From a bacterium (GTDB lineage Bacteria; Patescibacteriota; UBA1384; CAILIB01), in contig JBAXRQ010000001.1 of assembly GCA_037131105.1 (NCBI GenBank), positions 130,039 to 194,038 of the forward strand: a stretch of DNA of 64,000 nucleotides, in the 5' to 3' direction. Position numbers and translations under genes: made by a program. Under the pieces are notes generated by a model that saw nothing but the letters and a program-made list of their open reading frames with translations, did no database searches and was not told where the DNA came from. Shown here piece after piece: positions 49,159 through 50,091 of the stretch; position 1 is the first letter of the stretch; every line of letters begins with the position of its first letter.

Positions 49159-50091
49159 GTGCCTACAATTAACGATGGCTTCATGGAAGAACAACAAAAG
49201 AAAGAGCCCGTAGCTCAGCCGGCATCTCCTGGCAAGCGCTGGCTGAACTTCTATCTCCTTGCCGCCGTAGTGGTCTTAGCGGCTGTCTTCTTTGCTTTTT
49301 ACCAGAATAGGAGCGGCGCTAGTTTCCTAGGTGGTGGCGGTGGACTGGTCTTTGGCACGCCAACTCCGACCCCTTCGCCAACCCACACGATTGCGCCGAC
49401 GGCCACTCCTATTGCTACGGCCACTCCCACTTCAAGCCCTACGCTGCCTACTATTCTGACCACTATAACCTGTAGTGGTAAGATCAGCTGTCTCACCCTG
49501 ACAGGAGCTACTACCGGCCCGACGGTATATCCTACTGTTACCACAGTGGCCTGCGGTCCTTTCGTGAAGTGCATCTATCCCACCGTTACTCCGACGCCGA
49601 CACCTACTCCTGCTGGCACTCCCGGTCCGATAACCATATCGTGCGGTCCTAAGGTGGCCTGTATTACCCTTACCGGAGCAGTGGGCCCGTCCATTGTGCC
49701 TACTGCTGATACGGTGATCTGCGGACCACGCATACAGTGTGTGACTCCTACCGCAGCTATTACTTCTGCTACGACCGTGAGTCCTGTAAGCATTGTCTGC
49801 GACAGATTCATAACCTGTATTACGCCAGGGACTGGGGGAACTGTGGTGATATCGCCTACCACCGTACTCTGCGGACTGTTTGTTGCCTGCACCTTCCCAA
49901 CGGTTGCTCCTACGCCTACTCCGGTGGTAACTCCGACGCCAGGTACGACCATTCTGTGTGATATCCGAATACTGTGCGTGACACCTACGATTACCACTGG
50001 TACGCCTACGGTACTTGGTCCTAACACGATCTTCTGCGGTGCCTTGGTACCTTGCGTAAATGCTACACCGACCCCTACCCCAAAGTCTTAG
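49159..50091 (+). CDS. Membrane-anchored Thr/Pro-rich protein with eight copies of a novel Cys-x5-Cys repeat.
   Basis: N-terminal TM helix (LLAAVVVLAAVFFAF). Repeats: ITCSGKISCLT, VACGPFVKCIY, ISCGPKVACIT, VICGPRIQCVT, IVCDRFITCIT, VLCGLFVACTF, ILCDIRILCVT, IFCGALVPCVN. They are separated by TPTPTP-type linkers. Confidence 0.55.
   Translation: MPTINDGFMEEQQKKEPVAQPASPGKRWLNFYLLAAVVVLAAVFFAFYQNRSGASFLGGGGGLVFGTPTPTPSPTHTIAPTATPIATATPTSSPTLPTILTTITCSGKISCLTLTGATTGPTVYPTVTTVACGPFVKCIYPTVTPTPTPTPAGTPGPITISCGPKVACITLTGAVGPSIVPTADTVICGPRIQCVTPTAAITSATTVSPVSIVCDRFITCITPGTGGTVVISPTTVLCGLFVACTFPTVAPTPTPVVTPTPGTTILCDIRILCVTPTITTGTPTVLGPNTIFCGALVPCVNATPTPTPKS

Follow-up and report, generated by a model that had tools for sequence, protein, structure and literature searches.

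A putative surface protein with eight paired-cysteine repeats, encoded antisense between rpoD and dnaG in a Berkelbacteria-like bacterium of the Candidate Phyla Radiation

Bacteria of the Candidate Phyla Radiation (CPR; Patescibacteria) rely on contact with a host cell, and most of the proteins on their surface have no annotation. In a 64,000-nucleotide stretch of contig JBAXRQ010000001.1 (hereafter the window), from an organism that the relatives of its DnaG protein place within the Patescibacteria/CPR near Berkelbacteria, an orphan gene lies between rpoD and dnaG, and the locus raises the question of what kind of protein such a gene may encode and how it came to stand there. The answer that we favour, and to which we give an even chance, is that of an orphan membrane-anchored surface protein in which disulfide-stapled β-hairpin modules are borne on a threonine- and proline-rich (Thr/Pro-rich) stalk and which would have a structural or adhesive role.

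All 16 cysteines of the orphan protein fall into eight C-x5-C pairs, at residues 105/111, 132/138, 162/168, 188/194, 214/220, 238/244, 267/273 and 293/299. These positions are given in the numbering of the longer, 310-amino-acid (aa) form of the product; the transmembrane segment and the first cysteine (aa 97) are numbered below in the 302-aa form. The distances from the first cysteine of one pair to that of the next are 27, 30, 26, 26, 24, 29 and 26 aa. When the mature part of the protein was shuffled 200,000 times, no shuffle reached eight such pairs, and the other open reading frames (ORFs) of the window, most of which contain 0–7 cysteines, hold at most one C-x5-C pair each. The description of 16 cysteines in eight regularly spaced C-x5-C units given in an earlier note on this DNA thus stands, with every cysteine paired and the units 24–30 aa apart. 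The fuller motif proposed there, [IV]-x-C-[GD]-x4-C-[ILV]-T, is exact in four of the eight repeats, and the other four deviate from it at one or two positions; our alignment of the repeat cores reads x-x-T-[IV]-x-C-[GD/S]-x-x-[IV]-x-C-[ILV/T]-T-[PL]-T. Both cysteines are invariant across the eight diverged repeats, an internal comparison that stands in for the one between homologues proposed in the earlier note, and throughout the protein successive cysteines are either 6 or 18–24 residues apart. Around the cysteines Ile or Val occupies positions −2 and +4 and Thr positions −3 and +8, alternating as in β-strands. The turn after the first cysteine is Gly-Pro or Asp-Arg, and both faces of the hairpin are hydrophobic (Ile, Val, Leu or Phe), especially in repeats 5–8.

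Apart from its 16 Cys, the protein contains 64 Thr and 44 Pro, Thr and Pro together making up 34% of the stop-to-stop ORF, and Gln and Asn occur five times each in its entire length. The N-terminal transmembrane (TM) helix expected from the earlier reading of the sequence is well supported, since there is a single strongly hydrophobic segment (Kyte–Doolittle maximum of 2.49 at aa 21–39) and AlphaFold2 models this region as a helix (aa 16–44) with predicted local distance difference test (pLDDT) values of 85–89. An N-terminal tail containing Lys and Arg precedes the segment and a Gly5 hinge follows it; by the positive-inside rule it would be a signal anchor that leaves the N-terminus in the cell and places the C-terminus on the outer side. 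The Thr/Pro/Ala-rich spacer beyond the hinge was modelled without secondary structure (pLDDT 31–39). TPTPTP-like linkers had been thought to separate the repeats in general, and this proved to be so in part: real TPTPTP runs occur at three places only (upstream of repeat 1, downstream of repeat 2 and at the C-terminus), a looser APTPTPVVTPTP stretch lies downstream of repeat 6, and the remaining spacers are rich in Thr, Gly, Ala, Val and Ser.

Several known classes of anchored protein were considered for this architecture and rejected. The N-terminal sequence, MEEQQKKEPVAQPASPGKRWLNFYLL, has neither a Gly-Phe/Met motif for cleavage nor Glu at position +5, so that the class III signal (G↓F/M-x-x-x-E) that precedes the hydrophobic helix of a type IV pilin or pseudopilin is lacking. 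The C-terminus, ending in CVNATPTPTPKS, lacks the signal of a sortase-anchored protein, in which LPXTG precedes a hydrophobic stretch and a positively charged tail. The lipobox that ends the signal peptide of bacterial lipoproteins, L-[AS]-[GA]-C, is likewise missing, the first cysteine being aa 97.

The orphan ORF is truly protein-coding, at least in whichever genome the selection described below took place. When the eight repeat cores of 17 codons each were aligned, the pairwise nucleotide identity was 0.555, 0.588 and 0.317 at codon positions 1, 2 and 3, compared with 0.28, 0.36 and 0.27 in windows drawn at random, in frame, from that ORF. With the cysteine columns removed the values were 0.50, 0.53 and 0.29, and the difference stayed above zero in 5000 of 5000 column bootstraps. 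The proportion of synonymous differences between the cores (pS) was 0.74, which is saturated, against 0.43 for nonsynonymous differences (pN), and the conserved Thr and Cys positions are encoded by mixed synonymous codons. At the DNA level Tandem Repeats Finder reported nothing and seed-based repeat finding only short matches of 60–80%. Because of this codon-position pattern, the mixed codons and the lack of a repeat in the DNA, we consider the repeats to be old duplications kept by selection at the protein level.

The frame 49159–50091 (+) is open throughout, and a GTG at 49159 is an alternative start that would give the 310-aa form. The 302-aa product starting from ATG 49183 has been called publicly on a Logan contig (SRR7053528) and on a JGI contig (3300020157), whose DNA copies match the window with 100% identity; a third copy, also identical, is carried by Ga0194062_1041347. 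The predicted transcript start from the promoter-like site listed in Table 1 falls near 49161, downstream of the GTG, and ATG 49183 is therefore the more likely start codon. As about one such site is expected by chance in the region, it is suggestive by its position only.

Table 1. Coordinates of the orphan gene, the parts of its product and the flanking features, in window positions
Feature	Coordinates	Strand	Basis or remark
Orphan coding sequence	49183..50091	+	302 aa + stop; codon-position signature, public gene-caller records
Promoter-like site TTGACA-18 nt-TAGTAT	49125..49154	+	10/12 matches; about 1 expected by chance in the region
Transmembrane segment LNFYLLAAVVVLAAVFFAFY	49243..49302	+	aa 21-40 of the 302-aa form; only strongly hydrophobic stretch
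Gly5 hinge and Thr/Pro/Ala-rich spacer (TPTPTPSPTHTIAPTATPIATATPTSSPTLPTI)	49303..49455	+	Sequence; putative wall-spanning stalk
Repeat core 1 LTTITCSGKISCLTLTG	49456..49506	+	Repeat alignment
Repeat core 2 VTTVACGPFVKCIYPTV	49537..49587	+	Repeat alignment
Repeat core 3 PITISCGPKVACITLTG	49627..49677	+	Repeat alignment
Repeat core 4 ADTVICGPRIQCVTPTA	49705..49755	+	Repeat alignment
Repeat core 5 PVSIVCDRFITCITPGT	49783..49833	+	Repeat alignment
Repeat core 6 PTTVLCGLFVACTFPTV	49855..49905	+	Repeat alignment
Repeat core 7 GTTILCDIRILCVTPTI	49942..49992	+	Repeat alignment
Repeat core 8 PNTIFCGALVPCVNATP	50020..50070	+	Repeat alignment
rpoD	47744..48925	-	Pfam; start set by the N-terminus common to relatives
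dnaG	50101..51843	-	Pfam; convergent with the orphan gene, 9 bp between stop codons
Lineage-specific interval, rpoD start to dnaG stop (1175 bp)	48926..50100	.	Comparison with relatives

The C-x5-C repeat of the orphan protein is new and no described family matches it, as the earlier note had suspected. Searches of Pfam and NCBIfam gave no family at E ≤ 10 and PHROGs none at E ≤ 1, and searches of all PDB sequences, by phmmer with the protein and by a repeat profile, gave nothing at E ≤ 10. A word-index search with the whole protein in a collection of 5.8 billion proteins produced 8000 candidates, a list probably swamped by TPTPT words, of which none was significant. A two-repeat profile run against the library clustered at 90% identity returned 18 candidates, none at E ≤ 1. 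An exhaustive phmmer/HMMER search of 1.84 billion representatives yielded a single match (P0001, E 5.7e-4), which we rejected as a homologue: its alignment covers only the TM segment and the Thr/Pro spacer without the C-x5-C repeats and reflects low-complexity similarity. We also found nothing relevant in the literature on a bacterial CX5C repeat or on the sample accessions.

At the DNA level, the protein was scanned against the contigs of GTDB species genomes, where 135 pattern matches came up and none was confirmed, and tblastn against phages and plasmids gave nothing. A degenerate DNA pattern of the repeat, T-[IV]-x-C-G-P-x-[IV]-x-C-[IV]-T, matched viral contigs once, by chance, and 14 loci in the JGI metagenomes, only 2 of which were the orphan gene itself with an identical protein sequence. 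The orphan protein is thus confined to one population, with some caveats on libraries and filters. Its own cluster seems to be absent from the libraries, no self-match having been returned despite a self-score of 622 bits, and relatives more than 50% identical could thus be hidden behind the representatives; the composition filters of HMMER may, in addition, lose distant Thr/Pro-rich relatives. The repeat-profile search at 90% clustering and the DNA-pattern scans argue against relatives hidden behind the representatives.

Taken together in our favoured reading, an insert of about 1.15 kb would have been acquired or would have evolved antisense inside the dnaG–rpoD pair of a Berkelbacteria-like CPR bacterium. 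Its product would be of type II (N-in, C-out), with a short cytoplasmic tail, one TM helix and the Gly5 hinge, after which a Thr/Pro-rich spacer of about 45 aa would carry the remainder of the protein through the cell wall. Eight strand-turn-strand modules of the consensus T-[IV]-x-C-[GD]-x-x-[IV]-x-C-[ILV]-T-P-T, joined by Thr/Pro/Gly-rich spacers, would follow, each hairpin stapled by an intra-module disulfide between its two cysteines. Since both hairpin faces are hydrophobic, the modules probably pack together and are not independent beads, and the outcome may be a rigid β-rich rod or a β-solenoid-like body with a structural or adhesive, not an enzymatic, role on an episymbiotic cell surface. 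The analysis establishes the reality of the gene, its signal anchor, the eight conserved cysteine pairs, its orphan status and its insertion in one lineage; we infer that the repeats lie outside the cell, that disulfides form within them, that they pack into a rod and that the role is structural or adhesive.

The earlier note had offered serial disulfide-stapled units as one possibility, and had proposed structure prediction as a check. With cysteines flanked by β-branched residues, such putative units are the simplest and most parsimonious reading of the sequence. The prediction was helpful in part: the TM helix is confident, and AlphaFold2, run on single sequences for the full-length protein and again for its ectodomain, gave a strand-turn-strand in every repeat both times, with the first strand ending at the first cysteine in all eight, but the overall confidence was low (pLDDT 50.5 and 52.2, predicted template modelling scores 0.42 and 0.49, respectively).

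A number of points weigh against the favoured reading. The structural models are of low confidence, as said, and the disulfide geometry is putative. In several repeats the modelled second strand starts 3–4 residues past the first cysteine, and for this reason the two cysteines of a pair would lie diagonally and not opposite each other. CPR genomes are enriched in MdbA-like thiol–disulfide oxidoreductases, often encoded beside VKOR, which serve extracytoplasmic disulfide formation (bioRxiv 10.1101/335083) and support our reading by analogy, but no MdbA, DsbA or VKOR gene was found within the 64 kb of the window. In an anoxic habitat thiols might remain reduced after export. There is no homologue available for a comparison of conservation or co-occurrence, and the proposed adhesin or stalk function is an argument by analogy. 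Finally, the synonymous codon usage of the orphan gene is the least host-like among 15 genes compared, no Shine-Dalgarno-like sequence is evident by eye 5' of either the GTG or the ATG start, and, given in addition its antisense position, the expression of the gene is unproven.

Were the cysteine pairs reduced in an anoxic habitat, the protein might be metal- or redox-active at the surface, in line with the redox or metal-binding surface fibre envisaged in the earlier note: neighbouring hairpins might combine to form as many as four Cys4 sites (for Zn, Fe, Cu or Fe–S), or the protein might act as a thiol redox buffer or an electron-transfer rod. We consider this unlikely. It would agree with 16 strictly conserved cysteines in an exported domain, with an even number of pairs that could yield four Cys4 centres and with the failure to find a disulfide-forming enzyme in the window. 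Thiolate metal sites such as those of zinc ribbons, rubredoxins and metallothioneins, however, usually have CxxC or CxC spacing, and both knuckles are absent from the orphan protein; together with the scarcity of Asp and Glu and the presence of a single His in the ectodomain, located in a spacer, this argues weakly against metal sites. The position of the cysteines between β-branched hydrophobic residues is, moreover, usual for strand-embedded disulfides, and no metal-binding family was matched in Pfam, NCBIfam or the PDB sequences.

The strand-turn-strand repeats also bring to mind a β-solenoid or β-arcade subunit that assembles itself into fibres, as curli and other functional amyloids do; every repeat of 24–30 aa would form one disulfide-stapled rung, and the molecules would polymerise at the cell surface. 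A period of this length is found among β-solenoid coils, β-branched residues (Thr, Val and Ile) abound in the strands, both hairpin faces are hydrophobic, and curli CsgA and similar fibres share imperfect tandem strand-turn-strand repeats of about 20–30 aa. When both models were compared with the PDB by Foldseek, the matches were all β-solenoids (LpxA/LpxD, tapirin, a leucine-rich repeat protein and the CsgA fibril), but all were non-significant (E > 2, probability ≤ 0.08, TM-score < 0.33) and came from models with a pLDDT of about 50, and these matches are unusable as evidence. Neither Curlin_rpt nor another amyloid family was matched, and the Gln/Asn ladder of curli (S-x5-Q-x-G-x-G-N-x-A-x3-Q) is missing. 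The cysteine pairs, the TM anchor, which is unusual in secreted fibre subunits, and the Pro-rich spacers, up to TPTPTPTPAGTPGP, which break up the repeats, set the orphan protein apart from curli, and a fibre subunit of this kind appears to us improbable.

A precedent for one C-x5-C disulfide per repeat stapling a Thr-rich β-rod may be seen, by analogy, in the beetle antifreeze proteins (AFPs), whose repeat TCTxSxNCxxAx carries a C2–C8 disulfide in every coil (PMC8038014). TmAFP and DhbAFP (PDB 1EZG) resemble the orphan protein in being exported and built of Thr-rich tandem β-repeats with one C-x5-C pair per repeat (eight of eight here). They differ from it in their period of 12 aa as against 24–30 aa; none of the orphan repeat cores contains TCT or the Ser/Ala core positions, and the Pro-rich spacers and the TM anchor of the orphan protein are further differences, as is the eukaryotic origin of the beetle proteins. 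The search of the PDB sequences at E ≤ 10 revealed no similarity, and the likeness is one of analogy, not of membership. Taken further, it would make the protein a disulfide-laddered β-solenoid or β-arcade of a fold not seen before, a wider-coil bacterial counterpart of the beetle AFPs, arisen or captured as a new gene within dnaG–rpoD and forming on the CPR cell a rigid Thr-faced rod or self-assembling fibre that specifically binds the host envelope, a mineral or ice; this bolder version is, in our opinion, rather unlikely.

Eight similar, short, Cys-bracketed cores with linkers between them could also be those of a multi-core precursor, exported and cleaved in its Thr/Pro spacers to release up to eight cyclic peptides, closed by disulfides or Thr–Cys thioethers, with antimicrobial or signalling activity. 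Thr is abundant beside the cysteines, and a disulfide-closed C-x5-C heptapeptide loop, the 'Rana box', is a feature of frog antimicrobial peptides. The genes in the neighbourhood, confirmed by Pfam, are those of RpoD, DnaG, Maf, RuvA and a TrxB-like reductase, however, and no lanthipeptide synthetase, radical S-adenosylmethionine maturase or peptidase was matched in the 20 window ORFs scanned; the ABC exporter at 53773–55536 matched only ABC-transporter, SMC_N and AAA_21, with no peptidase domain. The N-terminus is a long TM anchor (a segment of 20 aa in a protein of 302 aa) and not a leader, and the hydrophobic faces of the cores suggest that they pack mutually. We find such a precursor very unlikely. 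A lanthipeptide, ranthipeptide or other ribosomally synthesised and post-translationally modified peptide was rejected separately, as the ORFs scanned showed no adjacent maturase (LanB/C/M or radical-SAM/SPASM) with a dedicated protease or exporter, and the protein is not a short leader-plus-core precursor free of a membrane anchor.

The claim of the earlier note that the gene is probably well expressed found no support in the analysis, given its orientation antisense to dnaG–rpoD, its codon usage and the lack of a Shine-Dalgarno-like sequence noted above. G+C at third codon positions is 0.50 in the orphan gene and 0.56–0.77 in 14 reference genes, and the C-ending codons preferred by the host (ACC 61%, GCC 63%, ATC 63%, CCC 46%) are not favoured in the orphan ORF; the overall G+C of the insert equals that of the flanks. 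The atypical codon usage fits a foreign origin or weak expression. The same features, together with the presence of the gene in one population only, would be expected of an ORF that is non-functional or hardly expressed, whether a recent foreign fragment or a decaying relic that is still open, and two further frames are open for 170–222 codons on the opposite strand. These opposite-strand frames are, however, the expected shadow of coding rich in ACN, CCN and GCN codons. The codon-position signature indicates long-term selection on the frame, though possibly in a donor genome, and the 302 codons are intact with a well-formed signal anchor and identical in sequence on contigs from three samples, and we regard a non-functional ORF as distinctly unlikely.

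The place of the gene was compared with the same locus in relatives of the host. In the 37 species loci that carry both genes, dnaG is followed by rpoD on the same strand with a median gap of 11 bp and a maximum of 418 bp. Among the nearest relatives with a readable junction the gap is 112 bp in L072 (65% DnaG identity), 41 bp in L003 (62%) and 154 bp in L004 (51%), with no gene between dnaG and rpoD; in the closest relative by DnaG, GCA_020696955.1 (75% identity), the contig ends inside dnaG. Because the gap here is 1175 bp, compared with this gene-free junction in the relatives, the orphan gene is a lineage-specific insertion, and the insert of about 1.15 kb lies antisense inside a conserved dnaG–rpoD operon. 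Its position between rpoD and dnaG agrees with the earlier description, to which we add that it is on the strand opposite to both flanking genes. Flanking the insert there are no transposon-like terminal repeats and no target duplications, Rfam had no match in the region, and a search for sister strains through the exact RpoD or DnaG products found none on record.

With the insert present, rpoD is separated from dnaG, and its transcription must begin from a promoter in the 257-bp divergent region 48926–49182; no minus-strand promoter came up in a simple scan for sigma-70 sites. This region is AT-richer, with a G+C of 0.49–0.50. Terminator-like hairpins are commoner than in shuffles (5 as against 1.2 ± 1.2), and two of them lie on the plus strand at 50260–50315, in the segment 50092–50320, inside dnaG and 3' of the orphan gene.

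Extended TPTPTP-type spacers are also seen in a wider group of exported proteins. Thr/Pro-rich ('PT') linkers and wall-spanning regions are found in surface proteins of Gram-positive bacteria and actinobacteria and in cellulases, where they stand between folded modules. The modules of the orphan protein differ from these in being Cys-bracketed units of about 17 aa and not full domains; LPXTG is absent and the anchor is N-terminal. Closer to the host, Cys-rich extracellular proteins of the CPR Peribacteria have been proposed to confer rigidity or attachment (PMC4736985), and they support our reading by analogy. They share with the orphan protein a CPR host, a predicted exported or membrane-associated location, an unusually high cysteine content and the absence of a functional annotation. 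The Peribacteria proteins, however, average about 1,655 aa, are encoded in gene clusters and have weak similarity to Cys-rich repeats of Myxococcus (PMC4736985), whereas the orphan protein has 302 aa, is solitary, carries a different repeat and has no Pfam match at E ≤ 10. The orphan protein is thus of a familiar sort, an unannotated, Cys-rich, low-complexity CPR surface protein, with a new repeat.

The interest of the protein is that it would show how rigid, Cys-stapled structures are made at the surface of CPR cells, and a small, disulfide-stapled repeat scaffold of a new kind might be derived from it; with 302 aa and a simple repeat, its recombinant production is readily possible. The locus illustrates well, in addition, that a lineage-specific gene can stand antisense inside dnaG–rpoD, a gene pair that is among the most highly conserved in bacteria, and it leads one to ask how this organism transcribes rpoD. 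The significance is limited by the single population, the lack of relatives and a sequence without a tie to a specific function, and would grow with the discovery of relatives or with a structure that proved to be a disulfide-laddered β-solenoid of a new type.

Other genes of the window deserve a short description. The maf gene, 47167–47787 (−), sits between rpoD and ruvA; in L003 ruvA comes directly after rpoD, and in L004 only an unannotated ORF of 99 codons lies between the two. The position of maf is a second rearrangement of the rpoD neighbourhood in this lineage. On the other side, divergent from dnaG, 51899–53776 (+) encodes a hydrophobic protein of 625 aa that has the look of a polytopic membrane protein and gave no credible match in Pfam, NCBIfam or the PDB sequences. 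Its homologues of 614 and 627 aa (43–44% identity) occupy the same divergent position beside dnaG in the two nearest relatives, L070 and L072; in L004 it is absent from that place. This is a conserved, unannotated, clade-specific membrane protein.

Exported proteins are encoded on the minus strand at 323–1606 (Big_13, Big_6 and dockerin), at 1584–2627 (an Fn3-like/WxL-interacting peptidoglycan-binding domain) and at 41775–45125 (1116 aa, CarboxypepD_reg/SpaA-like domains), and are multi-domain proteins typical of CPR cell surfaces. The window also contains a GH81 glucanase (19724–21838) and a cellulose-synthase-like GT2 (22418–23989). The 693-codon ORF at 13579–15660 (−), directly 5' of an ORF of 184 codons (13024–13578), has an N-terminal anchor, several immunoglobulin-like (Big_1/invasin-like) domains and a TPTPTPS linker; from the gene order and the N-termini of the flanking ORFs, which were not scanned, we read it as lying inside an ATP synthase operon. 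Its C-terminus is a hairpin of about 66 aa resembling the ATP synthase c subunit, in frame without a stop and beginning from an internal Met, which matched Pfam ATP-synt_C at E 2e-9 and the NCBIfam F0 subunit C at E 1e-9 under curated cut-offs. By eye, helix 2 of this part has no Asp or Glu at the position of the ion-binding carboxylate. Whether it represents a fusion or an internal start, the ORF is unusual.

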